Source of the DNA: a virus
Direction: 5' to 3' (one strand)
IMG/VR virus record: IMGVR_UViG_3300042876_000344
DNA length: 64,000 bases
Part shown: in pieces, positions 6,148-64,000 of the stretch
Numbering within the stretch: the stretch's first letter is position 1
How the letters are laid out: every line of letters starts with the position of its first letter
Translations under genes and position numbers: made by a program
Notes under the pieces: generated by a model
Database searches by the model: none
Told to the model about the DNA's origin: nothing
The model's input: the letters and a program-made list of their open reading frames with translations, nothing else

Positions 6148-6551
6148 TGGGTATGTTTGCGCCGGGTAGAAGCGAGACGGTGAACTACCACTATTGGCCG
6201 ATCCGATTCGGCTGGTCTAGTGGGCCATACCAGCAAACACTTTGGCGGTGGGTTAGAAGGGCTATCGACAGCAGGCGGTGGACCCTCGATTACCCACACC
6301 GATACACTTGCCTGTCGTCGCTGGAAATTCACAGGGCTGCTGCCCGTCGAATGTGGCACGGTTGGCCCATCGGGGGCAGTTCAAGGGAGTATGGCTGGAC
6401 GCTTCACCTTGGACGGTTTAAGGTGTACTTCGGAGATCCGGACACCACACGGCAATCCGAAATCAGTACTAATGGTCCATCCACACCGCAATCCGAAGTT
6501 GGTAAACTGGCTTCATGCCAAACAGACTCGGACTCAAGGACTGGAAAGTGA
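6147..6551 (+). CDS. hypothetical protein; its 3' end runs through motif copies and overlaps the transposase start
   Basis: ATG 6147 shares a base with the upstream TAA. Trp-rich. The last ~35 codons are encoded by the repeat-containing segment and may not be native. Confidence 0.4.
   Translation: MGMFAPGRSETVNYHYWPIRFGWSSGPYQQTLWRWVRRAIDSRRWTLDYPHRYTCLSSLEIHRAAARRMWHGWPIGGSSREYGWTLHLGRFKVYFGDPDTTRQSEISTNGPSTPQSEVGKLASCQTDSDSRTGK
6447..6497. repeat. two direct copies of the 15-bp motif upstream of the transposase ATG
   Basis: ACACGGCAATCCGAA at 6447-6461. ACACCGCAATCCGAA at 6483-6497. Confidence 0.7.
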
Positions 6552-7837
6552 CGAACGTCGAAGAAAGCACAACAGACATGAGGGTGACGGCAGAGTACAC
6601 GCCGCCACCCACGGCCTGCCCTCGCTGTGGGTTGGCCGACCAGCCGCTCTACAAGCACGATGTCCGCACTCAGGAGTTCATGGATACCCCGCTCCACGGA
6701 AAGCGGGTCCATTTGATCGTGAGACGCCAGCGGTACGTCTGCCAAGGGTGCGAGAAAACCTTCCAGCAGATCCTTCCTGATATGGAGGAAGACCGCACGA
6801 TGACGAAGCGACTGGTGTCGTACATCAAGCGTCTATCGCTGGAAAAGAAGTTCACTGAGATTGCTGATGAGGTTGGAGTCAACGAGAAGACCGTCCGCAA
6901 CCTATTCAAAGAGCACGTCGAAAGGCTCGATTCCGAGCGGGTCATCACGGCCCCGGAGTGGCTTGGCGTGGATGAGCTTCACATATTGGGTGACTTTCGG
7001 GCGATGCTCACAGCCCCCGGCGAGAAGAAGATTCTTGACCTTCTGGAGAAACGAGACAAGGCTACCGTTCTCAAGTGGATGCTGGCCCTGCCCAACCGGA
7101 AGAACGTCAAGGTGGTGACGATGGACATGCACCGCCCGTACCGGGAAGCTGCGTTGGCAGCGTTTCCGAATGCCGCCTGTGTGGTGGATGTATTCCACGT
7201 CGTCAGGATGGCAAACAAAGCGGCGGATTCGCTCCGCATCGCACTCAAGGATGAACTGGACCCGAAGGTACGCCGGAAGATCAAGCGTGATCGGTGGATC
7301 ATTCAGGCACGTCGCAGGAACCTGAAGGCTGGCGACGTAATCATGCTGCATTCGTGGGATCGGGTAGTTCCGATGCTCTCGGCAGCATACCGGGCAAAGG
7401 AAGACTTCTACGACATCTACGAAAAGGCCAAGGACCGGGCGGAAGCTCTTGAACTGTGGGACTTGTGGCTGGAGATGTTGGAGCCGGAACTGAAGAAGCC
7501 CTTCAGTGAACTGATCCGGGCTGTGACGAACTGGAAGCCCGAAATCTTCAACTTCTTCGACTACCGGGGCAAGACCAACGCCTACACGGAAGCGATCAAT
7601 AGCGTCATTCGAGCCATCAACCGTGCTGGTCGTGGCTATAGCCTCGACGCCATCAGAGCCAAGGTGTTGTACGGCGGCAAGAAGCGGCAGACGGACACCG
7701 AGTACCAGAAGGTCGCCTTGTCGATGAAGATCAAGCGGCCCAAGGTGGACACAACTTATCGGGTGGACCCGGAGACAGTGCTCCATGTGGACAAACCACC
7801 CAAACCAAAGAAGAAGACAAGAAAGTATGAGAAATGA
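6515..7837 (+). CDS. ISL3-family DDE transposase (apparently intact)
   Basis: 440 aa. N-terminal zinc finger CPRCG...CQGCEK. HTH region. DDE-type core blocks VTMDMHRPY, VVDVFH and TNAYTEAINSVIRAINR, typical of ISL3 transposases. Confidence 0.9.
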   Translation: MPNRLGLKDWKVTNVEESTTDMRVTAEYTPPPTACPRCGLADQPLYKHDVRTQEFMDTPLHGKRVHLIVRRQRYVCQGCEKTFQQILPDMEEDRTMTKRLVSYIKRLSLEKKFTEIADEVGVNEKTVRNLFKEHVERLDSERVITAPEWLGVDELHILGDFRAMLTAPGEKKILDLLEKRDKATVLKWMLALPNRKNVKVVTMDMHRPYREAALAAFPNAACVVDVFHVVRMANKAADSLRIALKDELDPKVRRKIKRDRWIIQARRRNLKAGDVIMLHSWDRVVPMLSAAYRAKEDFYDIYEKAKDRAEALELWDLWLEMLEPELKKPFSELIRAVTNWKPEIFNFFDYRGKTNAYTEAINSVIRAINRAGRGYSLDAIRAKVLYGGKKRQTDTEYQKVALSMKIKRPKVDTTYRVDPETVLHVDKPPKPKKKTRKYEK

Positions 7838-47319: not shown

Positions 47320-49305
47320 TCAACTCCTCATCATCAGTAGCCGCTTTGCCTTTGATGCCAGCCTTGGGATATGCGTCACCCGACGGCCGACTTCCCGATC
47401 ACGCGCCGCAGCTTCCGCTGCGCGATTCACCTGCACCATCGTACTCGCATTCGCGCCAGGATGGCAAGCCCTATATGCCTCTACCTTGTTTTGAATGAAC
47501 ACGTCACGAGGGAGGGCCTCTTCCGCGAACGCGAAATTATGGACCAGATGAACTGCACTATCCAGTACGTCATCACCGTCCTGCTTCGCCGCCTCTTCCG
47601 TGTTTCCGTCCTTCTCTACCGCCGCCTGAATCCCCTGGATCAGGTTCACGCACTCAGAGAAAATCTGCAGTACCGGCAGTACTTCCTGTTTTATCTCCTC
47701 GATTGAGCGCTTGTACTCGGCGTAGGCTGTCACCCCTTGGGTGTCGATCAGGTATCGCGCCACATTCTCGTCGTAAACCGGGGCCCCAGTCAGAGGCTGC
47801 CAGCGCATGTACTCCCGCATCAGGGTGTAGCCGTGCTTCCGTTTCGCGCCACCGCCGGCCGGAATCAGCGCCAGGGCCACCCTTGCGGAAACTGCCGCAT
47901 ACCGCGCCTGCAGGCTCTCCCATGCTTCCTTCGGCGTCATCCCCTGTTCATCATCGTTCGGGGCGAACGCGAACACCGTGCCGGAGCCGAGCACCGCCTC
48001 CATCCCACGCTTGATCTGATCCGCCTCTGATTCTCTACCATCCCGATGGAAACAGTCGTGAGACAGGTAGACACTCATCGCATGTGATGGCAACGCCTGG
48101 AGATCCTTGTACGCCAACTCCGCAACGTGCGCGCCGGCCTCCATCGTCGATAGCCCGCGGAATTTAGATTCCTTATAGAACACGAGTTGCTTATTCGGTT
48201 TCCAACATGCCAGCGTTACGCCGGAGTCATGGCTGTAGCCCCAGTCGAACCCGATCGCCCGCGGCCACCACGGCGCCAGATAGCAGGGGTCGATGACGTG
48301 GACGGCGTTCTCCGGCTCGCTAGCGTGCCGTGTCTTCCGGAACGTCCTGAAGAATGAGCCAGCCACCACGTCGAAATCGCCCAAGCCCATGCGCTTGTAC
48401 TCGATCTCGTCGAACGTCTTCATCGACTCCAGGTTCTGGATGTACTGGCTGTTCTCTTCCAGGAAGTATGGATTGTCCCAAGCTGTCGAGTGGATGGCCA
48501 GCCGCTTCGTACCGGTGATTGGGCAAACGTAGGGCTTACCGTACGGCCATGGCTCAGCGCCACCGTGCGCGTAGCGGAACCGCTTGTTGATCCAGGGGAC
48601 GCCCGGGCCGTTCGGGTTCAGTGTCAGCATGACTTGGCAACGCATCTCCCGTCCGTACTTCGTGCGGTTGCGTTGCTTCAGTCGGACGTACAGCAGCTCC
48701 GTCTCGATGTGGCTGGCTTCCTCGATCACGATCCGAACGAACTGCTTGCCCATGTACTTCTGGTAGGAGTTCGGATCTGCCAGGTGGCCGAAGTACACAG
48801 CCGCCCCAGACGGGAACTCCACCATCATTGGGTTCTCTTTGCAGTCGGCGCCGAGCTTCTTCGCGATGTCGCTGAACCGGCGGTAGTAGTCGTCGAGGTC
48901 GGTGGCGTTCTTGCGGAGCACCAGCGCCTCGTACTTCGGATGGGCGCAGTACGACACGTCGGCCGGTGTGTCGCCGACTGGGCGGAGGTTCCCCCTCAAT
49001 AGAAAACCAAAGGTTGCTTCCGTCTTCGCCGACCCAGCTCCGCCGAACAGCGCGATCTCGTCGGCATCCGACGTCAACGCCTGCGCCTGCGGGCCAGGCT
49101 TGCAGCGGCAGGGGATTTTGTGCTGGTGGTGGAAGACCCGCTTGCCATCGGGCCCGATGTCGTATCCGGCGCACTTCACGTACCGCCAGGCGATCAGGTC
49201 CTCGTCCTGCGCGGCAACGTGCTGCGCGTACTCCTCGCCTTTGAGGTTGGCAAAGAGGACCTGCGGGGGCGGTGCCTTCTTGACCTTCGAGGAAATGCGG
49301 GCCAT
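47320..49305 (-). CDS. terL: terminase large subunit
   Basis: 661 aa. Walker A-like LFGGAGSAKTE. Walker B-like RIVIEEASH. RNaseH-fold nuclease-like IGFDWGYSHDSG. First gene of the late operon. Confidence 0.8.
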   Translation of the reverse strand: MARISSKVKKAPPPQVLFANLKGEEYAQHVAAQDEDLIAWRYVKCAGYDIGPDGKRVFHHQHKIPCRCKPGPQAQALTSDADEIALFGGAGSAKTEATFGFLLRGNLRPVGDTPADVSYCAHPKYEALVLRKNATDLDDYYRRFSDIAKKLGADCKENPMMVEFPSGAAVYFGHLADPNSYQKYMGKQFVRIVIEEASHIETELLYVRLKQRNRTKYGREMRCQVMLTLNPNGPGVPWINKRFRYAHGGAEPWPYGKPYVCPITGTKRLAIHSTAWDNPYFLEENSQYIQNLESMKTFDEIEYKRMGLGDFDVVAGSFFRTFRKTRHASEPENAVHVIDPCYLAPWWPRAIGFDWGYSHDSGVTLACWKPNKQLVFYKESKFRGLSTMEAGAHVAELAYKDLQALPSHAMSVYLSHDCFHRDGRESEADQIKRGMEAVLGSGTVFAFAPNDDEQGMTPKEAWESLQARYAAVSARVALALIPAGGGAKRKHGYTLMREYMRWQPLTGAPVYDENVARYLIDTQGVTAYAEYKRSIEEIKQEVLPVLQIFSECVNLIQGIQAAVEKDGNTEEAAKQDGDDVLDSAVHLVHNFAFAEEALPRDVFIQNKVEAYRACHPGANASTMVQVNRAAEAAARDREVGRRVTHIPRLASKAKRLLMMRS

Positions 49306-50748: not shown

Positions 50749-50897
50749 CCCGCACACCCCTAGCCCCACTCGATGAACGCCCGATCCGCGTCTGGGCGCT
50801 GGTGCAAGCGATGGTGGACCTGTGCCGGCGCCGGAAGCTGAAGCTGCCGGGGAGGCCGGCGGCGGTAAAGGAGCCATGGAGGGTAGCCAAATGGTAA
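50745..50897 (+). CDS. small hypothetical protein (GTG start, 50 aa)
   Basis: GTGA coupling. VTRTPLAPLDERPIRVWALVQAMVDLCRRRK... Confidence 0.35.
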   Translation: MTRTPLAPLDERPIRVWALVQAMVDLCRRRKLKLPGRPAAVKEPWRVAKW

Positions 50898-52273
50898 CCC
50901 TCCGCCCCTACCAGCAGCAGGCAATCGACGGACTCCGCGCCGCCGTGCGGATCGGGCAGCGCCGACCGATCCTGGTGGCTCCAACCGGCAGCGGCAAGAC
51001 TGTCATCGCTGCATCGCTCATCCAGGGCGCCCAGCAGCGCGGCTCGCAGATCCTGTTCATCGCCCATCGACGCGAACTCATCGCGCAGACGTCGCAGAAA
51101 CTCGACGACATCGGCGCCGATCACGGCATCATCCAGGCGGGGAATACAAGAACCAACACCCTCCCCATCCAGGTAGCATCCGTGCAGACCATGAACCGCC
51201 GGGCATCGTGGTTCACGCCGCAGATCATCATCATAGATGAAGCGCACAGAGCACCCTCGGATAGCTATCAAAAGATAGTCAACGAATTCCCCTCCGCCGT
51301 CGTCATCGGCCTGACCGCCACCCCCTGCCGTACTGACGGCCGCGGCCTGGGGACGTTCTTCAACGCGATCGTCGAGTGCCCCGGTGTCGGCGAGCTCACC
51401 CGTATGGGGTTCCTCGTGCCGGCCGTCACCTACAGCCAGGCGCCGCCGAATCTCAAGGGAGTACACAAGCTGGCCGGCGACTACAACAACGACGAACTCG
51501 CAGCCGTGATGAATGAGCGGAAGCTGGTCGGCAACGTCGTCGACCACTGGCGCAAGTATGCCTTCGGCCAGCCCACTATCGTCTTCGCGGTCAACATCGA
51601 ACACTCCCTCGCCATCACGAAGCAATTCCTAGCCGCCGGAATCTCCTGCGAGCACATCGACGGGGGGACACCGAACGAAATCCGCGACGGGGTATTCTCC
51701 CGCGCGCTGGTCGTCAGCAACGTCGGCGTCTACACAGAGGGCACCGACGTGCCCCGTGTCTCCTGCATCGTCATCGCCCGGCCCACCATGTCCGTCGGGC
51801 TCTACCTGCAGATGGCCGGCCGCGGGCTCCGCCCCTCGCCGGGAAAGACAAACTGCATCATCCTGGACCACGGCGGCTGCGCCCGGATGCACGGGCTGGT
51901 CGGCCAGGAGCGCATCTGGACCCTGACGAACTACGCCGGCATCCGCACTGCCAATGGCCCGGCCATCGACGTGCGCGACACCATCAAGGTCTGTCCGAAG
52001 TGTTTGCTGGTCACTGATCGCGAAGCGAAGAAGTGTGAGTGCGGCTACACGTTCTCCGCCGCATCGCTGAAGTCAGTCAGCGGGGAACTGACTGAAGCGA
52101 GGGCCGTTCACATCCCCACGGAAGATGAGAAGAGAAAGGCATACCAAAGAGCACTATGGATCCAACGAACGAAAACCAAGAAGGACGGGAGCCCATACAG
52201 CCCCCTGTTCGCGAAGATGCGGTTCAAGGCGATGTACGGGACGTGGCCGCCGAAGGAGTGGGACAGGATGTGA
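50891..52273 (+). CDS. SF2 DEAD/DEAH-box (ResIII-type) helicase
   Basis: GGAGGG 7 nt before ATG 50891. Motifs LRPYQQQAI, APTGSGKT, IIIDEAHRA, GLTATP and QMAGRGLR. Confidence 0.85.
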   Translation: MVTLRPYQQQAIDGLRAAVRIGQRRPILVAPTGSGKTVIAASLIQGAQQRGSQILFIAHRRELIAQTSQKLDDIGADHGIIQAGNTRTNTLPIQVASVQTMNRRASWFTPQIIIIDEAHRAPSDSYQKIVNEFPSAVVIGLTATPCRTDGRGLGTFFNAIVECPGVGELTRMGFLVPAVTYSQAPPNLKGVHKLAGDYNNDELAAVMNERKLVGNVVDHWRKYAFGQPTIVFAVNIEHSLAITKQFLAAGISCEHIDGGTPNEIRDGVFSRALVVSNVGVYTEGTDVPRVSCIVIARPTMSVGLYLQMAGRGLRPSPGKTNCIILDHGGCARMHGLVGQERIWTLTNYAGIRTANGPAIDVRDTIKVCPKCLLVTDREAKKCECGYTFSAASLKSVSGELTEARAVHIPTEDEKRKAYQRALWIQRTKTKKDGSPYSPLFAKMRFKAMYGTWPPKEWDRM

Positions 52274-53915: not shown

Positions 53916-54096
53916 AACACCAACGCCCCGCCGCTTCCCCGTCGCCATCCAGCCGCGGCGGATCATGCAGGTGCAAGCGCAGGTCAGACGGAAGAAGAAA
54001 ATAGAAGAAGACAGGAAAAAGCGCATCGCGGAGTGGTTAGCAATAGAGATGTTCGGAGAGCCCGGCCGGTGCCCCTGGTGGCGGAGGTGGCTATGA
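53830..54096 (+). CDS. small basic protein (hypothetical); start uncertain
   Basis: Frame of track ORF 53773-54096. Third-position GC becomes high after about 53840. Candidate starts are GTG 53800, ATG 53830 and ATG 53886. Confidence 0.4.
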   Translation: MFGRNQCEDDQSIPNSQYMGPTARWVLNKTPTPRRFPVAIQPRRIMQVQAQVRRKKKIEEDRKKRIAEWLAIEMFGEPGRCPWWRRWL

Positions 54097-54323
54097 ATAG
54101 CCCATCCGCACCTCGTTTTACCTGGAAGACGAAAAAAGACACGCGAGTTCTATACTCCACCAGCAAAAAACAGCTTGGTGCCGTATGCCACGATCGCGCC
54201 TCATTCTACTTGATTGCCTATGTCGGGAGGAGAGATCTCTACATCGGGAGTTATCCGACAGAAAATCGAGCCCGAGCCGCACTCATCCGGTGGTGGCTGA
54301 GGATCGTGAGGACTGAACTATGA
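54093..54323 (+). CDS. small paralog family member (P8)
   Basis: ...PRFTWKTKKDTRVLYSTSKKQLGAV...LYIGSYPTENRARAALIRWW. Confidence 0.55.
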   Translation: MNSPSAPRFTWKTKKDTRVLYSTSKKQLGAVCHDRASFYLIAYVGRRDLYIGSYPTENRARAALIRWWLRIVRTEL

Positions 54324-54586
54324 GCGAAAGCATCACCTTCACCATCATCTACGACAGCTTCACCTGCCCGTTCTGCATGGCCAGCGTCAAAACTCCGCAC
54401 AGCGGGAGGCTCCACACATGCTCGCGTTGCGGTGAGGCGTTCTGGCGCGGCGGCGTGCCTGACACCACTCAGCCCCCCGCCTGCGACAACTGCCTCTTCG
54501 CCCGCGGCTACTCCTGCTGCGCGCACCCCACCACCATCCCATTCTCGGAGCGTCGGTGGTGCGGAGAGTGGAGGGCAGCGCGATGA
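54320..54586 (+). CDS. Cys-rich zinc-finger-like protein
   Basis: CPFC...CSRCG...CDNC... Confidence 0.55.
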   Translation: MSESITFTIIYDSFTCPFCMASVKTPHSGRLHTCSRCGEAFWRGGVPDTTQPPACDNCLFARGYSCCAHPTTIPFSERRWCGEWRAAR

Positions 54587-54804
54587 CCCCCTCCTGCACC
54601 TGCGGCCACTGCCGCCGCTGCATCGCCCGCGAGTACCAGAAACGCCGCGGCCGTACCGTCCTGCCCACCACGTTCGAGCAGGCCGTCGAAGCACGCAAAC
54701 ACTCAGCCGGCCTGCTGATGTGGCCGCATATCAGCCAGTCCATCCGGACGCTGGAGGATTCCTTCCCGCATCTGCGCAATACTCAGATAGGGGACCCATG
54801 CTGA
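54583..54804 (+). CDS. small Cys-containing protein (hypothetical)
   Basis: ATGA coupling. MTPSCTCGHCRRCIAREYQKRRG... Confidence 0.5.
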   Translation: MTPSCTCGHCRRCIAREYQKRRGRTVLPTTFEQAVEARKHSAGLLMWPHISQSIRTLEDSFPHLRNTQIGDPC

Positions 54805-54962
54805 AACTCATCATCGAGATCCCAGCCCTCGACCGGCTCCTCGACTACCTCGAAGGCCGGGAAATTTCAACCCTCACTGCGGAGATCATCCGTCTCACCG
54901 CAAAACTCGCAACGTCCGAATCCACTCTCAAGGAGTCTATCTCAAATGGCCAACTTCGCTGA
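54798..54962 (+). CDS. small helical protein (54 aa)
   Basis: MLKLIIEIPALDRLLDYLEGREISTLTAEIIRLTAKL... Confidence 0.4.
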   Translation: MLKLIIEIPALDRLLDYLEGREISTLTAEIIRLTAKLATSESTLKESISNGQLR

Positions 54963-55209
54963 ACTCGCCGCGGCAGTCGCCGCCCTCTCTGAACAGGTCG
55001 CCGCCACCGAAGGCACTGAAGCCTCCGCCGTCGCCCTCATCAACGGCTTCGCAACCCAGGTCACCACCGCCGTCGAAGCCGCCCTCACCGCCGACAACGC
55101 CGCCGATGACGCCTCCATCGCCGCCGCCAAACAGGCCATCGTCGACGTTACCGCCCGCTTCAACGCCTCGGCCGCGGTGCTTGGCGCTGCCGTGGCGAGC
55201 AACCAGTAG
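54946..55209 (+). CDS. Ala-rich helical protein (hypothetical), last gene before the terminator
   Basis: 87-aa ORF followed by a hairpin and T-run. Confidence 0.5.
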   Translation: MANFAELAAAVAALSEQVAATEGTEASAVALINGFATQVTTAVEAALTADNAADDASIAAAKQAIVDVTARFNASAAVLGAAVASNQ

Positions 55210-55228
55210 ATTAAAACCGTATCATCTG

Positions 55229-55259
55229 AAACCGGGGGCTGAAAAGCTCCCGGTTTTTT
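55229..55259 (+). terminator. rho-independent terminator
   Basis: AAACCGGGGG / CTCCCGGTTT stem (9/10 paired), 8-nt loop, then a run of T residues. Confidence 0.7.
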
Positions 55260-55260
55260 G

Positions 55261-55290
55261 TTGACATTGAGTCCTCTATTCTAATAGAGT
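55261..55290 (+). promoter_or_regulatory. sigma70-like promoter TTGACA-18 nt-TAGAGT with an overlapping palindrome CTCTATTctAATAGAG (55274-55289)
   Basis: Immediately after the terminator. ATG 55297 lies 6 nt after the -10 with no SD. Confidence 0.45.
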
Positions 55291-55296
55291 ATCCTC

Positions 55297-55467
55297 ATGA
55301 CTACCAGCCTAGCCTCCCCTCGGCAAGCAGCAGAGCACCTCGCACTCAACAAAAACACTGTCTATAAAATGATCCGCGACAAGCGTATCCCCTCCGTCAA
55401 AATCGGCAAGGCCGTCCGCATTCCCTGGCGTTGGCTCCACGCACAGGCGGAGGCGGCCGGGAAATGA
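55297..55467 (+). CDS. excisionase/AlpA-type helix-turn-helix DNA-binding protein (56 aa, not in the track)
   Basis: MTTSLASPRQAAEHLALNKNTVYKMIRDKRIPSVKIGKAVRIPWRWL matches the excisionase-family HTH pattern. ATGA-coupled to the next gene. Confidence 0.65.
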   Translation: MTTSLASPRQAAEHLALNKNTVYKMIRDKRIPSVKIGKAVRIPWRWLHAQAEAAGK

Positions 55468-55856
55468 AAATCAAACGGCCCGCCTACTACGACCTCGACT
55501 TCGCCAGCGAACTCGAAGCTCGATGGTTCGTTCTCTTCGCGGAGCAGGGCACGAAGATCATCCTGCACCCAGACTCCCCTGAAGGATGGGAGAAATTCCC
55601 AACACAGCCTTCATTCTTGATCGACGACATATGGTGCTACGCTCTCGTCGTGCCGCAAGGCAAGTCTCCATCAAAGAAAGTCCTGGCCGATTTCAAGGAG
55701 TGGGACGGCGAAGGGGCATCGGGCCTCTGGGTCTTTGAGGGCCCTCCGGCCGACAAACTCTACGATGGCGTCCACCCTAGCCTCTACTGGAAGAATATTC
55801 CAACCCCGGAATTCGAACGCGCACTCAAGATCGCCCTTTCCATCCAGTTCGAGTAG
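55464..55856 (+). CDS. hypothetical protein upstream of the primase
   Basis: 130 aa. MKIKRPAYYDLDFASELEARWFVLF... Confidence 0.55.
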   Translation: MKIKRPAYYDLDFASELEARWFVLFAEQGTKIILHPDSPEGWEKFPTQPSFLIDDIWCYALVVPQGKSPSKKVLADFKEWDGEGASGLWVFEGPPADKLYDGVHPSLYWKNIPTPEFERALKIALSIQFE

Positions 55857-55864
55857 TCACCACC

Positions 55865-57856
55865 ATGACAGCCATGCCCTCCCACTCATCCTCCCCCATG
55901 CTCGAATGGGCCCTCCGCTACGCCGCCATGGGCTGGCCCGTCTTCCGGCTTCAGGGGAAAAAACCCGTCAAGGACACCCACGGATTCAAGGACGCCACGA
56001 CCGATCCCGACCAGATCCGCGACTGGTGGCGCGTCAACTACAACATCGGGATCCACTGCAGTCAGTTCTGGGTCCTCGACGTCGATCCCGCGAAGGGTGG
56101 CTTCACATCTCTCCAATCCTTCCCTGAAAAACTCGATACCCTCACCCAGATCACGGGCTCCGGCGGCCGGCACTACCTCTTCCAGAACCCCGGCTTCCAC
56201 GTCAGCAACTCATCCGAATCCATCGCCCCTGGCGTCGACGTTCGAGGATCGGACGGCTACATCGTCGCCTGCCCCTCCATCCACCCGGATACCCGCAAAC
56301 CCTACGAATGGTACGGGACCAAGGACCCCACTCCCCAGGACATCAAACCCGCCCCTCAGTGGCTCCTCGACAAACTGACGAAACCAGCCCCGCCGGCGCC
56401 CATCACCATTTCCGAGAAAATCTCCAAGGGCCAGCGCCACAAAACCCTCACCTCTCTCGCCGGCACCATGCGACGCCGCGGCTGCACTCCCGAGGAAATC
56501 CTCGCAGCTATCCGCGTCACCAACTCCACCCGCTGTGACCCGCCCTACAACGACAAACACCTCCAGCAGATCGCCAACAGCATGGAGAAATACGCACCGG
56601 CTTTATCCCCCGCGGAAACGCCGGTCGAGGTCTCAACCCTCCCCGACTGGACCAAAATGCTCCAGCGCAATGACAAGGGCAAACCCATCCCCAACGTCGT
56701 CAACGCCTCTCTCCCCCTCAACTTCGACCCCGCCTTCGCCGACGCCATCCGCTTCAACCTCCTCCGATCCTCCATCGAAATCTCCCGCAACATCCCCGAG
56801 ATGCTCGTCTACAACGCCCCCTGCGAATGGGCCGACAAACACGACATCGCCTACGCCGCATGGTGCCAAACCAAGGGAATCCAGATCGCCCCCACCACCG
56901 CAGCCCACGCCGCCATCCTTATCTCCAACCTCAGATCCTTTCACCCCGTCCAGGAATACCTGAACTCTCTCGTCTGGGACGGCGTTCCGCGGATCACCAC
57001 CTGGCTCAACGCCTACTGCGGCGTCGAGGACAACCTCTATACCCAGACCGTCGGCCGCAAATGGCTTATCTCCGCCGTCAACCGCGCCCTCCACCCCGGA
57101 TGCAAGGTCGACTCCTGCCTCATCCTCGAAGGCAAACAGAACATCGGCAAATCCCGGGCCCTCAACATCCTCGGCGGAGACTGGTACACCGACCAGATCA
57201 AGGATCTCGACTCCAACGACGCCGCCCTCCAGGCTTCCCGCGTCTGGATCGTCGAAATCGGCGAGCTCGACGCCTTCCGCAAATCCGAAACTACCGCCTT
57301 CAAGGCCTTCCTCTCACGCCAAATCGACCAGTTCCGACCCGCCTACGGCCGCCACGTCCAAACATTCCCCCGCCAGTGCGTCTTCGCCGGCACCACCAAC
57401 CAGGATCAGTACCTCCACGACGAAACAGGGAATAGGCGTTTCTGGCCCGTACGCTGCCACCAGATCCTCCAGGACGCCCTCGCCACCGATAGGGACCAAC
57501 TCTGGGCCGAGGCCGTCGTAGCGGCCAATTCCGGCGAACCCTGCTGGATCGAGGACGCCGACGTCATCACCGCCGCCACCGGCGAAGCCAATATCCGCTT
57601 CATCGACGACGCCTGGGCCGAAAAACTTATCCCTTGGATGGTCGACCGCTTCGCCATGGGCGACAGATTCGTCACCACCTCTCAACTCCTCGAATCCTGC
57701 CTCGACATGCGCACCAAGGACTGGACCCAGCGCGATCAGGACCGCGTGGCTAAAATCCTACGCCAACTCCACTTCGCGCGCCGCAAATTCCGCTCCGGTC
57801 AATCAGTCGTCTGGGGATGGCATCCAACCTCAGACTCCACCTCCCCATTCGACTAG
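55865..57856 (+). CDS. bifunctional Prim-Pol primase fused to a VirE/D5-like P-loop helicase domain
   Basis: Prim-Pol blocks GWPVFRL..GKKP..KDAT, VLDVD and GGRHYLF. PriCT-like GQRHKTLTSLAGTMRRRG. P-loop LEGKQNIGKS. Confidence 0.9.
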   Translation: MTAMPSHSSSPMLEWALRYAAMGWPVFRLQGKKPVKDTHGFKDATTDPDQIRDWWRVNYNIGIHCSQFWVLDVDPAKGGFTSLQSFPEKLDTLTQITGSGGRHYLFQNPGFHVSNSSESIAPGVDVRGSDGYIVACPSIHPDTRKPYEWYGTKDPTPQDIKPAPQWLLDKLTKPAPPAPITISEKISKGQRHKTLTSLAGTMRRRGCTPEEILAAIRVTNSTRCDPPYNDKHLQQIANSMEKYAPALSPAETPVEVSTLPDWTKMLQRNDKGKPIPNVVNASLPLNFDPAFADAIRFNLLRSSIEISRNIPEMLVYNAPCEWADKHDIAYAAWCQTKGIQIAPTTAAHAAILISNLRSFHPVQEYLNSLVWDGVPRITTWLNAYCGVEDNLYTQTVGRKWLISAVNRALHPGCKVDSCLILEGKQNIGKSRALNILGGDWYTDQIKDLDSNDAALQASRVWIVEIGELDAFRKSETTAFKAFLSRQIDQFRPAYGRHVQTFPRQCVFAGTTNQDQYLHDETGNRRFWPVRCHQILQDALATDRDQLWAEAVVAANSGEPCWIEDADVITAATGEANIRFIDDAWAEKLIPWMVDRFAMGDRFVTTSQLLESCLDMRTKDWTQRDQDRVAKILRQLHFARRKFRSGQSVVWGWHPTSDSTSPFD

Positions 57857-57897
57857 AGGCCAAGAGGCCAAGAGGCCAAGAGGAACATGAGGAACAT
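57856..57897. repeat. tandem repeats GAGGCCAA x3 followed by GAGGAACAT x2, starting at the primase stop codon
   Basis: Read directly. Confidence 0.85.
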
Positions 57898-58143
57898 TTG
57901 TTACCCTCCGCAAGTCATTGATTCATTACCTATGTACCCTATGTTCCTCTTGTTCCCCCTATATACTGATACATTATACATATCGTATACCGCCTACGGT
58001 ACACCACCACCCCCCCCCCTGTTCCCCACGCCTCTAGGGAAATGGGTGCAACATAGAGGAACGGAGGAACAAATCTCGCAACCTCCAAAGAATCAATTAG
58101 ATACAGACTGCAGGCAAAGAGGAACATCTGTTCCCCGTTCCTC
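57880..58143. repeat. iteron-like cluster: 10 copies of G(A/G)GGAAC in both orientations, flanking an AT-rich stretch (57961-57990) and a C9 run
   Basis: GAGGAAC on the plus strand at 57880, 57889, 58056, 58064 and 58119. GAGGAAC on the minus strand at 57943-57949 and 58137-58143. GGGGAAC on the minus strand at 57952-57958, 58021-58027 and 58130-58136. Confidence 0.75.
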
Positions 58144-58385
58144 TCAAATAGGGGACCCATCGCCAAAATGGACCAGGCAGTACCCAGTCCGTCGTACCTC
58201 CGCCCAGGCAGGCCTAGCTAAAACGCGCGCAAGGGGACCCGTGCACGCGCGGGGGTAGGGGGAGGGGGTGGTCTCGCGCGCAGGACATTGCCCTAGTCTT
58301 GGACATGTCCTGGACTACAGACAGAGCAGGACTACAGTCAAGACACGAGACAAGACACGAGACCAGTCGGTTCCGATAATGGTGA

Positions 58386-59099
58386 TTATCGGGCAGGTGG
58401 AGGCGGTGGCGGCGGGGCGAAGGGGTCGATGCCCTGGCCGATGAGCCTGATGGCCTGCTTGCGTTCGGCGGCACTCAACTTTTGAAGGAGCTGCATTCGG
58501 CTCGGCGGCTTTGGCGGCTTCGGTTGCCGCTTGACGGGCGGTGGCAGCTCGGCAACCGGTTCAGGGTCAGGCTCAGGTGCCGGCAACGCCTCAACCTCAA
58601 CCACCTGGCCCTGGTCCTGCTCCTGGCCCTCATCCAGGACCTGCGGAGTGTAGACCAGCATCTGAACGGTGGTCTGCGAGTGAACCTGGTTCACCTCGCC
58701 TCGAAGCTGGGCCTGGAGCTGAAGTGCTGCCGTTTCAGCACGATCCACGGACGCCCACCCGGAAACGTCCTTGTCCTTCTCCGCGAGATCCAGTATCCGG
58801 TCATAGCGGGCGAGCTTCTTCGCCACGAGGTCGGCGGTACTGGTTTGAGCGATCAGCGCCGGTAGCACGTTTTTAGTCATTCGTGCTACGCCGGCAGCGT
58901 CCTTGTTAACTTGAGACCGGGTATTGGGATAGTTTCCGAGGGCGGCTGGTCTAACGATACGTTGCTTAAAACGGCTGAGGGTTTGGCAGGTGAGGCCAAA
59001 ATCGGATGCTATCGACCTGAGCGTATCTCCCGCTAAGATTCTGGAAATAATAGCCTTAGACTCCGGGTGCGATGCGATCTTGGAGGAAAAGTTGCTCAC
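58386..59099 (-). CDS. HTH DNA-binding protein; possible small terminase subunit or regulator
   Basis: N-terminal HTH SRILAGDTLRSIASDFGLTCQTLSRF, central coiled coil, acidic and Pro-rich C-terminus. Confidence 0.6.
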   Translation of the reverse strand: MSNFSSKIASHPESKAIISRILAGDTLRSIASDFGLTCQTLSRFKQRIVRPAALGNYPNTRSQVNKDAAGVARMTKNVLPALIAQTSTADLVAKKLARYDRILDLAEKDKDVSGWASVDRAETAALQLQAQLRGEVNQVHSQTTVQMLVYTPQVLDEGQEQDQGQVVEVEALPAPEPDPEPVAELPPPVKRQPKPPKPPSRMQLLQKLSAAERKQAIRLIGQGIDPFAPPPPPPPAR

Positions 59100-59250: not shown

Positions 59251-59279
59251 TTGTTTCGTACAGAGTTCCGATATCAAAT
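59251..59279 (+). promoter_or_regulatory. weak promoter-like element TTGTTT-17 nt-TCAAAT, with ATG 6 nt after the -10
   Basis: Same geometry as the three stronger promoter and ATG pairs. AT-rich intergenic region. Confidence 0.25.
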
Positions 59280-62750: not shown

Positions 62751-63062
62751 ATGAAGACACCACCAGCGCCTGCCTGTAAAGGCTCCCTGCGTGATCTGTG
62801 CAACGCGGGGCTTGATGGTTTCGCCATATCAGAACTAGCTGCATCTGAAGAGTTTTTTGTAATTAGGGGGAGTCGGCTGCCGATATTCATCGCCTCGGCT
62901 GACGGTGTGTTTATGGGTGATGACGTAGCCCCCGCCAATGCGTGGGAGCGGGTGTGGTGCCATGTGTGCTGGCAACTCAGCTATACGGATGCCGAAGTTG
63001 AGGAGTACAGGGGTTACTTCGAGTTGATTGAAGCGTGGATTGAGGGAGAAACCAGTGAATGA
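62751..63062 (+). CDS. hypothetical protein upstream of the integrase
   Basis: GGAGAG upstream of ATG 62751. Confidence 0.5.
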   Translation: MKTPPAPACKGSLRDLCNAGLDGFAISELAASEEFFVIRGSRLPIFIASADGVFMGDDVAPANAWERVWCHVCWQLSYTDAEVEEYRGYFELIEAWIEGETSE

Positions 63063-63888
63063 TCTTGCTCTCCATCGCCCTGATTTGGGCGCTATTGCGC
63101 GTCTGGCAGTCGACGCGCAACGAAACGAGAACACTGCACGGGCGTATGCCAGAGCCATCAACCGATACGTCGAGTGGCACGTCCAGCAGCCGGAGCCGTT
63201 CAGCCGGCGAACTGTGATGGCGTGGATGAAAGAGACGGGCGCCGGCAACCAGGAGTTGTCGGCGCTTCGCACGTTGGCGCGGGAAGCCTACCAGAACGGG
63301 CTGATCGACGACGCCACCACGTACGGCATCACGATGATTCCGGGGGTGCGGCACGAGGGCCGGCGGTCGGGGAACTGGCTGGACCGCGCCAACCTGGCGA
63401 AACTGCTGGAGGTCGCCGCGGATCGGCCGCGGGATCTCGCAATGATTCACCTGCTGACGTACGGGGCGTTGAGGAGAGAAGAGGTGGTGGGCTTGGACTG
63501 TGAGCAGCTGGTCCAGCGGTCGGGCCGGTGGGTGCTGCTGGACGTCAAGCGGAAACGGAATCGAATCCAGACGATCCCACTACTGGAGAGCACTGCCTGG
63601 GTGGTGGGGTCCTGGATCAAAGGAAAGACCGGGAAGATGTTCCCAATCACCAGCCGAAGACTGTACGACATCGTGCGGGAACTGGCCGGACTGGCAGGGA
63701 TTGAGGATTTGGGATGCCATGATCTGAGACGGACGGGTGCAGCGCTGATGCGATCTGCGGGCGCGCCGCTGGAGAAGATCCAGAAACACCTGGGACACGC
63801 CAGCATCATGACGACCACGATTTATTTGCAGGATGTGGACGACCTCAGCGATTCCGCTATTGACTATTTACCAAAAAATAGTGGATAA
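63055..63888 (+). CDS. int: tyrosine recombinase (phage integrase)
   Basis: GTG 63055 lies 6 nt after GGGAG. C-terminal HDLRRTGAALM...LGHASIMTTTIYL carries HxxR and the catalytic Tyr. Confidence 0.9.
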   Translation: MNDLALHRPDLGAIARLAVDAQRNENTARAYARAINRYVEWHVQQPEPFSRRTVMAWMKETGAGNQELSALRTLAREAYQNGLIDDATTYGITMIPGVRHEGRRSGNWLDRANLAKLLEVAADRPRDLAMIHLLTYGALRREEVVGLDCEQLVQRSGRWVLLDVKRKRNRIQTIPLLESTAWVVGSWIKGKTGKMFPITSRRLYDIVRELAGLAGIEDLGCHDLRRTGAALMRSAGAPLEKIQKHLGHASIMTTTIYLQDVDDLSDSAIDYLPKNSG

Positions 63889-63895
63889 TACACCA

Positions 63896-64000
63896 GTGAA
63901 GAAGATTCAGACGTTCGTGACCGATAAAGGGTTCGCCAAGCTGAAGGCGCTGGCGAAGCGGCATGGGGTTTCCATGGGGCGGATTATCGACAGGTTGCTG
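63896..64000 (+). CDS. ribbon-helix-helix (CopG/Arc-like) protein, 5' part, truncated by the window end
   Basis: GTG 63896. VKKIQTFVTDKGFAKLKALAKRHGVSMGRIIDRLL is a typical RHH beta-strand plus helix pattern. Confidence 0.45.
   Translation, partial: MKKIQTFVTDKGFAKLKALAKRHGVSMGRIIDRLL

Follow-up and report, generated by a model that had tools for sequence, protein, structure and literature searches.

Introduction

The replication origins of Staphylococcus aureus pathogenicity islands (SaPIs) lie immediately 3' of the rep or prirep gene, extend over about 300 bp and carry 6-12 penta- or hexanucleotide iterons. Their centre is AT-rich and is flanked by two or more iterons per side, in opposite orientation, and the reader is the C-terminal winged helix of a self-loading helicase (PMC9371898; bioRxiv 10.64898/2026.10.17.759575). 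In the alpha protein of P4, a Toprim primase, a superfamily 3 (SF3) helicase and a C-terminal winged helix binding short origin repeats are joined in one polypeptide, and ORF904 of pRN1 as well as the protein of Bordetella phage BPP-1/BIP-1 combine Prim-Pol, a helical linker, an SF3 helicase plus a winged helix, with a stem-loop origin located 3' of the gene (PMC4234260). Here, we analysed a locus from the IMG/VR virus record IMGVR_UViG_3300042876_000344, a metagenomic contig of 66,309 bases, the first 64,000 of which (64.0 of 66.3 kb) constitute the window under study. The locus consists of a gene for a 663-aa primase-helicase, a convergent gene for a 237-aa helix-turn-helix (HTH) protein, and the 529-bp gap between the primase stop codon and the HTH gene.

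The first-pass annotation of this DNA had proposed that the gap as a whole is a candidate origin read by the upstream primase-helicase. We consider it very probable, on the basis of sequence comparison and structure models, that the left part of the gap (57857 to about 58150) is the replication origin of the phage and that it is of the SaPI Rep/PriRep type; this degree of confidence applies to the origin part only and does not extend to the block on its right. The proposal is well supported for no more than the left 300 bp or so, with the iterons, the AT-rich core and the C run. The elements that had been pooled with the iterons, namely the palindrome, the G-tract and the direct repeats (9- and 12-mers), belong to a separate module, whose conservation is independent of iteron type. 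The origin is supported by the enrichment and layout of the repeats, by homology of the primase-helicase to a proven initiator, by a predicted winged helix in this protein, and by the co-variation of the iterons with that winged helix. Such a design, in which a phage's own primase-helicase reads short repeats just 3' of its gene, is already known, and the locus would be a new example of it. The origin itself was thus to be expected, and it is the neighbouring block that is the item of interest. Specific to this locus are a tidy natural specificity series and a conserved block tied to an unclassified HTH gene.

A primase-helicase related to SaPI1 Rep1

The gene at 55865-57856 (plus strand) encodes a protein with Prim-Pol, PriCT_1 and VapE-like SF3 helicase domains, as judged from Pfam and PHROG matches, and a predicted winged helix at the C-terminus. 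The N-terminal domain was identified as a Prim-Pol (PF09250, E = 8e-36), and residues 261-531 matched SaPI1 Rep1 (PDB ID: 7PDS) in a phmmer search with E = 7e-48. The AlphaFold2 (AF2) model, built from 64 homologues, had a predicted local distance difference test (pLDDT) score of 90.9. When this model was used as a Foldseek query, the top match was again 7PDS (E = 7e-30, TM 0.73-0.74, about 450 of 451-457 residues, 25-26% identity), followed by the helicases of NrS-1, poxvirus D5/E5 and SaPI5 PriRep. As it covers nearly the entire Rep1 chain, the alignment presumably includes the C-terminal domain of Rep1.

According to the model, the initiator would end in a DNA-binding domain of the winged-helix type formed by residues 583-655 (57611-57829, plus strand, within the coding region). 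The predicted order of secondary structure elements is H-H-H-E-E: helices at residues 583-597 and 605-612, a recognition helix at 622-634, and a beta-hairpin wing at 637-654.

Iterons on both sides of an AT-rich core

The heptamer G(A/G)GGAAC (GRGGAAC) is strongly concentrated immediately past the primase-helicase gene. Ten of its 25 matches in the window, in both orientations, are located within the 264 bp between 57880 and 58143, as had been counted before, whereas the window-wide density predicts about 0.09 copies for a segment of this length, which amounts to an enrichment of roughly 100-fold. The shorter core GGAAC/GTTCC gives the same picture: the best 300-bp stretch holds 10 copies, and when the window was divided into fixed, non-overlapping 300-bp bins, the top bin contained 8 copies and the next-best one 4.

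The ten iterons are arranged in the manner of SaPI origins, with four on the left side and six on the right side of an AT-rich core, in the order + + - - (core) - + + + - -. The first lies 24 nt past the primase stop codon. The left set (57880-57958) consists of two forward copies of GAGGAAC at 57880 and 57889, which are part of the tandem repeat GAGGAACAT x2 with the same starting positions, and of reverse copies of GAGGAAC and GGGGAAC at 57943 and 57952. The set is an inverted repeat capable of forming a stem-loop, and as single-stranded DNA (ssDNA) it folds better than shuffled sequence (z = -3.5). The right set (58021-58143) has iterons at 58021 (-), 58056 (+), 58064 (+), 58119 (+), 58130 (-) and 58137 (-); the last three make up the head-to-head group at 58119-58143 that had already been recognised. 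For the ssDNA of 58045-58150 the fold z-score was -3.1.

Between the two sets, 57960-57989 is 80% A+T, compared with an average of 39%; only one other 30-bp window in the 64 kb has an A+T content of at least 80%. This stretch, which had been placed one base further to the right (57961-57990), is presumably the DNA-unwinding element. Next to it there is a run of cytosines at 58010-58019 (plus strand). It had been described as C9 at 58011-58019; the run is real and its length is C10.

Between the stop codon and the first iteron, the three tandem copies of GAGGCCAA that had been noted begin at 57856, 57864 and 57872, the first G being the last base of the primase stop codon. These degenerate 8-bp repeats occupy 57856-57879 on the plus strand.

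Iterons and winged helix vary together among relatives

Contigs of relatives were gathered via the primase and the HTH protein. No close relatives were found in the phage, plasmid or IMG/VR collections searched (IMG/VR by protein, profile and DNA pattern), and the phage collection yielded only three matches of about 200 bp, all within primase genes. The close clade comprises ten contigs (L001-L009 and L016), of which L003 and L004 are near-copies of L002, and L007 shows 67 nt of the gap. A further contig, L015, spans just the HTH gene and the final 49 nt of the gap, and originates from the same sample as L002 and L005.

In all relatives spanning the region, the same two convergent genes are separated by a gap of about 480-555 bp. 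No gene was called in the gap in any of them, in agreement with its earlier description as non-coding. Alignments and a sliding identity plot showed that the left 300 bp or so is only 30-60% identical among relatives, with short cores kept at fixed places together with the AT-rich stretch, which lies at the same place in all relatives; wherever the region is covered in close relatives, 9-10 iterons accompany the AT-rich core. The position of the C10 run is C-rich in most relatives. In the window, the run and the G-tract lying 215 nt downstream show 77% complementarity over 26 nt; however, a conserved long-range helix between the two was rejected as unlikely, because L001 is G-rich at the C-run position.

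The iterons themselves differ between relatives. Those of the window and of L016 are of the AGGAAC type, as are the two copies visible in L007, and L002, L005, L006 and L008 have TGGAAC. In L001, all nine aligned copies read TGGAAT, and not a single GGAAC occurs among its iterons. The A/T difference goes with the sequence of the wing (FARRKFRSG versus FDTKKFKVN), and the C/T difference is accompanied by four residue changes within the recognition helix (TRDQDRVAKILR to SIDQRRVSRILR). Among the close relatives, the base 5' of GGAA tracks the wing and the base 3' of GGAA the recognition helix, a correlation seen in aligned sequences.

This bears on the simplest alternative, namely that the repeats arose by chance or by slippage in a spacer without function. 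The GAGGCCAA x3 tract does resemble a product of simple slippage and is absent from the relatives. The iterons, however, exceed their density in the window about 100-fold, their positions and orientations are kept in relatives, and in L001 every copy has been altered in concert. That all copies vary along with the domain reading them is the pattern of a binding-site family; chance is therefore ruled out, and we give this explanation practically no credence.

More distant homologues point in the same direction. Relatives at 42-48% protein identity have iteron arrays of their own directly past the stop codon, each with an AT-richer centre: GGTAGGAAC/GTTCCTACC x9 in L010, about nine copies of CTGACACAAC in L012, and TCCACAACT in L013. 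At 30 of 61 helicase-homologue loci in bacterial genomes, the 350 bp past the stop codon contain the strongest 7-mer repeat of the entire locus of about 13 kb (5-12 copies), the repeats of the Acidobacterial loci being TGGGAAC, GGGAACA or GTGGAAC.

The place of the GAGGCCAA tract is taken in two relatives whose winged helix is of the window type, L007 (2150-2216) and L016 (reverse), by a canonical intrinsic terminator, a GC hairpin followed by T7-8, which stands between the primase stop codon and the first iteron. Since the window has GAGGCCAA x3 instead of this terminator, transcription of the primase operon may enter the origin.

Comparison with described systems and proposed mechanism

The closest likeness is to SaPI1 Rep1 and SaPI5 PriRep5. 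As in these systems, the initiator combines an SF3 helicase with a winged helix at the C-terminus, and its fusion to Prim-Pol is that of PriRep5; the putative origin lies right behind the gene, measures about 300 bp and has about ten iterons of 5-7 nt, which flank an AT-rich centre on each side in both orientations. The differences concern the element, which here is a 66-kb tailed phage, probably of an Acidobacterial host, and not a staphylococcal satellite, as well as the GRGGAAC sequence of the iterons, the PriCT_1 linker domain and the presence of a second conserved block of 200 bp.

The first-pass annotation had instead compared the repeats with those bound by P4 alpha. With regard to function the comparison stands, as in both cases a primase-helicase with a C-terminal winged helix would act on short repeats, but the closest relative is of the SaPI1 Rep1 type, with Prim-Pol and SF3 domains. 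P4 alpha has a Toprim (bacterial-type) primase where the protein described here has a Prim-Pol, and a domain search gave no match to Toprim in the primase-helicase. The octamer of P4 is TGTTCACC, and P4 additionally depends on crr, a second cis site that carries these repeats. In contrast, no second GRGGAAC cluster exists elsewhere in the 64.0 of 66.3 kb seen, the final 2.3 kb being outside the window. A P4-type system was ruled out by the Prim-Pol in place of Toprim together with the single iteron cluster in the 64 kb seen.

The proteins of pRN1 and BPP-1 share the domain order, and their origin also lies directly downstream of the gene. That origin is described as a single stem-loop of about 100 nt without iterons, whereas the present one has discrete iterons and an AT-rich core. 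Because each inverted iteron set can form a long ssDNA stem-loop, the design described here can nevertheless be linked to the stem-loop origins proposed for pRN1 and BPP-1.

From these comparisons, a hypothesis regarding initiation may be put forward. The gene ending at 57856 would encode a self-loading primase-helicase-initiator, whose C-terminal winged helix would bind the GRGGAAC iterons flanking the 80% A+T core at 57960-57989. A double hexamer would be loaded, with hexamers assembling on each side of the core and melting it; the Prim-Pol domain would prime, and replication would proceed in both directions.

Three observations weigh against this origin. Firstly, at 28 of the 61 distant loci no repeat cluster is found directly past the stop codon, and post-stop placement is for that reason common and not universal. 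Secondly, the final 2.3 kb of the contig, outside the window, could hold a second iteron cluster. Thirdly, the cumulative GC skew calculated for the window reaches its global minimum at 58205, which is not diagnostic: the skew is asymmetric around the circle, and values near -0.3 are limited to the primase operon, so the minimum counts as compatible only. Nevertheless, we retain the SaPI-type origin, which would be the likely start point of replication for an uncultured, probably Acidobacterial phage lineage and would extend the SaPI Rep-ori design to this group. As the close relatives provide a natural specificity series, a direct and cheap binding experiment is feasible.

With respect to the primase operon itself (54000-58200, plus strand), the GC skew of the coding strand ranges from -0.15 to -0.42, and that of the plus-strand genes past 59.2 kb from +0.15 to +0.29. 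The negative skew of the operon may reflect a module of different origin.

A separately conserved block next to the putative origin

The right part of the gap, 58181-58385, behaves differently from the iteron region. It is 94-95% identical to its counterparts in L001, L002 and L009, 85% identical to that in L016 and about 72% identical to that in L005. Its flanks are mosaic (35-98% identity), as is the neighbouring coding DNA (50-98%), and the block is more conserved than the surrounding genes. It was found only together with the gene for the 237-aa HTH protein and nowhere else among the 112 loci gathered or the genomes searched. These comparisons indicate that 58181-58385 is a distinct, independently conserved non-coding module tied to the HTH gene.

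The block has a GC-rich core (58224-58281) made up of CGCGCGC (58224), CGCGCG (58246), G5-TA-G5-A-G5-TGG (58251-58271) and GGTCTCGCGCGC (58270-58281). The three G5 runs at 58251-58268 had been noticed before. The last two elements of the core are the most conserved piece of the block in the window and five relatives; the same six sequences have a nearly invariant GGGGGAGGGG[G/A]TGGTCTCGCGC, with a single G/A difference in L002, and L016 differs more. Read on the minus strand, the core gives a C-rich stretch containing CCUCC, then a GC hairpin, then UUUU (from 58220-58223). Three self-complementary GCGCGC elements occur in the block, and AGGGGACCC is present both within it (58232) and just upstream of it (58150).

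Further to the right, the previously described palindrome GGACATGTCC at 58301-58310 is contained in an imperfect 24-bp palindrome, TAGTCTTGG-ACATGT-CCTGGACTA (58294-58317), which is lost in L005 and L006. It is followed on the plus strand by direct repeats (58312-58362), for which the earlier description was accurate in one half: CAAGACACGAGA is repeated at 58339 and 58351 (58339-58362) as had been stated, but a second pair, reported as AGGACTACAG x2, is an exact repeat of GGACTACAG only (58312 and 58329). In L005 and L016 the numbers change from two and two to one copy of GGACTACAG and three of CAAGACACGAGA, the length remaining unchanged. Such swapping of repeat copy number is typical of protein-binding arrays. 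Finally, a 20-bp palindrome, CCGATAAT-N4-ATTATCGG (58373-58392), covers the stop codon of the HTH gene; its arms are invariant and its spacer is variable, and the left arm lies inside the 9-mer GTTCCGATA (58370).

A coding function of the block was considered as well, as five of six relatives have an open frame on the minus strand. It was rejected, because the encoded peptide shows no conservation and L005 has a broken frame. Likewise, a search of the window against Rfam returned no family at the gathering threshold, the inverted iterons giving chance-level, miRNA-like matches with E > 0.5.

In the sister clade, whose primases are 69% identical, the otherwise diverged non-coding DNA after the iterons contains a single shared island of 69 nt (L012, 8606-8674; L013, 8748-8816), composed of GGGGTACTAGCC and a C7-8/G7-10 hairpin. 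Just past this island, the L012 contig ends in tandem TGCGGCCAGGY repeats.

The convergent HTH gene

The gene at 58386-59099 (minus strand) encodes a protein of 237 aa with an N-terminal HTH, a helical centre, an acidic and Pro-rich linker and a conserved C-terminal helix. All of its 29 homologues belong to this clade. The AF2 model (pLDDT 60) is confident for the HTH only, and in Pfam this part corresponds to a generic HTH_28 or GerE fold. Weak matches to phrog_18995, a small-terminase family, were obtained for 16 of 22 homologues, the best with E = 6e-4, and were restricted to the 34-residue HTH. The protein may be small-terminase-like, as had been suggested earlier, or a regulator. The record's own gene call gives a 164-aa form starting from an internal Met (P0127); the long form, starting with the GTG at 59099, is likely to be correct, because homologues of 235-270 aa conserve the N-terminal HTH.

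The 9-mer GTTCCGATA has only two exact copies in the window (58370-58378 and 59265-59273), on the same strand and bracketing the HTH gene; the second lies within the divergent promoter region, about 165 nt upstream of the HTH start. The same bracket recurs at six loci of relatives, namely L001-L004, L009 and L016, which represent five distinct sequences. Moreover, three of the four copies of AGTCGGTT in the window flank the HTH gene (58365, 59144 and 59154). This arrangement of the GTTCCGATA and AGTCGGTT copies suggests that the gene has operators, or twin rightward promoters, on either side.

Candidate roles of the conserved block

On this evidence, we tentatively favour the block as a protein-binding and termination unit of the HTH gene. 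The palindrome over the HTH stop codon would be an operator, its half-site motif recurring at the HTH promoter; the direct repeats would supply further binding sites, and the GC hairpin with its U-tract would act as the minus-strand terminator. A promoter-like sequence, AAGACA-17-GATAAT (58352-58380), overlaps the 12-mer repeats, one such match being the chance expectation. Two results limit the reading of the block. For the HTH protein, Foldseek returned nothing below E = 0.1 and a profile search of the PDB returned nothing, and RNAalifold detected compensatory change in only two of 57 pairs of the folded block, with a positive covariation term. Regulation and termination, DNA packaging, a small RNA and an accessory role at the origin are near-equal as readings of the block.

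A packaging function had been raised in the first-pass annotation. The right block, possibly the whole gap, would then be a pac or cos site, and the HTH protein would be an orphan small terminase that attaches to the direct repeats and the palindrome and recruits TerL, encoded 9 kb away; we see this as possible, if somewhat doubtful. No small-terminase gene is found beside terL, the neighbouring open reading frames (ORFs) being without matches, and terL is the first gene of its operon in L001. The weak phrog_18995 matches in 16 of the 22 homologues fit such a role, as does the layout of the protein, with its N-terminal HTH, helical centre and flexible tail. The block and the HTH gene always occur together, and the copy number of the direct repeats varies as it does in protein-binding arrays. 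The comparison with pac/cosB sites of the SPP1/lambda type can be carried some way, since direct repeats and a palindrome adjoin the gene of an HTH protein whose centre is helical and whose tail is flexible; here, however, 9 kb separate that gene from terL and it is oriented toward the site, and the protein has no significant sequence or fold match to solved or predicted small terminases. The PHROG match is limited to the 34 residues of the HTH, the Pfam fold is generic, and Foldseek gave no significant match; neither Pfam nor the PDB or BFVD lent support to a small terminase. Contig ends are ambiguous in this respect: the independent contigs L006 and L015 end no more than 5 nt apart inside the 12-mer repeat, and the distant L012 ends in its own tandem repeats, but such ends can be explained as assembly breaks at a segment common to co-occurring strains, and seven other contigs read through. 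For L006 and L015, breaks of this kind are probably the explanation. In addition, the iterons of the left half co-vary with the primase-helicase and not with the HTH protein. If the block were a pac site, it would explain how DNA is packaged without a terS gene beside terL.

Rather unlikely, in our estimate, is a structured RNA of about 90-170 nt transcribed from the minus strand, either as the 3' untranslated region of the HTH transcript or from a promoter of its own (TTGACT-16-TGTAGT, 58341-58314), and the same holds for its use as a riboregulator, with the nearly invariant CCUCC-containing C-rich stretch as an anti-Shine-Dalgarno seed and an end at the GC hairpin and UUUU (58251-58220). The minus strand folds with z = -4.0 in the window, -4.2 in L016 and -2.8 in L002, compared with -1.9 for the plus strand, and in a 100-nt fold a C-rich single strand stands between a 5' hairpin and a terminator-like hairpin, whose stems are constant while the loop varies (TGCA, CGGG, CGCA). 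The complement of the G-tract is the best-conserved part of the block in the window and five relatives, as in a seed. Seeds are usually the most conserved part of small RNAs. Nevertheless, the near absence of compensatory change recorded above tells against a structured RNA too, and no Rfam family was recognised. In L005 the fold does not surpass that of shuffled sequence (z = -1.1 and +0.9); L016 and L005 have not retained the 5' hairpin, and the U-tract is degraded in L005, L006 and L016. A small RNA at this place would, if true, set a phage riboregulator directly against the replication origin of this phage group.

The block might also assist the origin, either as a fixed priming or helicase-loading site for the Prim-Pol/PriCT part of the initiator, or as a G-quadruplex or GC clamp delimiting the melted region. 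Accessory sites have precedents in RSF1010, where ssiA and ssiB are read by RepB', and in pRN1 (PMC4234260). The block stands directly beside the iterons and is conserved whatever the iteron type, as would be expected of a site recognised by the conserved N-terminal domains; one island with a G-run and a C-run after the iterons is also kept in the sister clade (L012 and L013), and the GC-skew minimum at 58205 falls between the two parts. We nonetheless judge this role unlikely. As ssDNA, the block folds no better than shuffled sequence (z = +1.0, +0.3, -0.9 and -1.4), and ssi-type hairpins were rejected; L010, whose initiator is 48% identical, has no such block, its genes beginning 100 bp past the iterons; and the block co-occurs strictly with the HTH gene.

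Lastly, a site for the tyrosine recombinase encoded at 63028-63888, either attP or a dimer-resolution site with the palindrome as core and the direct repeats as accessory elements, seems improbable. The 9-6-9 imperfect palindrome TAGTCTTGG-ACATGT-CCTGGACTA does have core-like geometry, the site lies in a gap between convergent transcription units, and the integrase is 4.6 kb away. The integrase gene is, however, not adjacent to the block, and L005 and L006 have lost the palindrome but retain the remainder of the block. Furthermore, no attB was found, either by the exact pattern in genome contigs or by BLAST in 406 genomes: the five metagenome-assembled genomes (MAGs) with the best initiator homologues and 401 of their class gave only scattered, chance-level matches to the G-rich part. 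The earlier suggestion that the repeats are arm sites of the integrase is unlikely as well, because the 286-aa protein has only a SAM-like domain (from residue 26) and a catalytic domain, which leave no room for an arm-binding domain.

An attP next to the integrase gene was excluded, as the next gene starts no more than 10 nt past its stop codon and leaves no room. The peptide encoded there (63890-64000), VKKIQTFVTDKGFAKLKALAKRHGVSMGRII..., resembles a ribbon-helix-helix protein of the CopG/Arc type.

Genomic setting

The genome reads as that of a tailed phage. A structural module on the minus strand spans about 10.7-49.3 kb and includes terL (47320-49305); it is followed by an early module on the plus strand, in which a superfamily 2 (SF2) helicase gene (50822-52273) precedes that of the primase-helicase. 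Further plus-strand genes lie to the right of the HTH gene, up to that of the tyrosine integrase. The best genomic homologues of the primase-helicase, at 37-44% identity, sit in MAGs of Bryobacterales and other Acidobacteriota, and for this reason the host is probably an Acidobacterium.

Several further features were observed outside the gap. In L015, genes of the Acb2/Tad1-hairpin and Tad2-like types, which belong to anti-CBASS and anti-Thoeris sponge families, occur beyond the integrase (247-663); the counterpart of this region falls at or past the end of the window. Just 5' of the primase-helicase gene, L002 (1024-3060) encodes a 678-aa N6/N4 DNA methyltransferase interrupted by a weak intein-splicing match, and the window has a different ORF of 176 aa at this place. 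Finally, a complete transposase of the ISL3 family, with zinc ribbon, HTH and DDE parts, is encoded at 6515-7837 among plus-strand phage genes, which suggests the insertion of an insertion sequence (IS) element.

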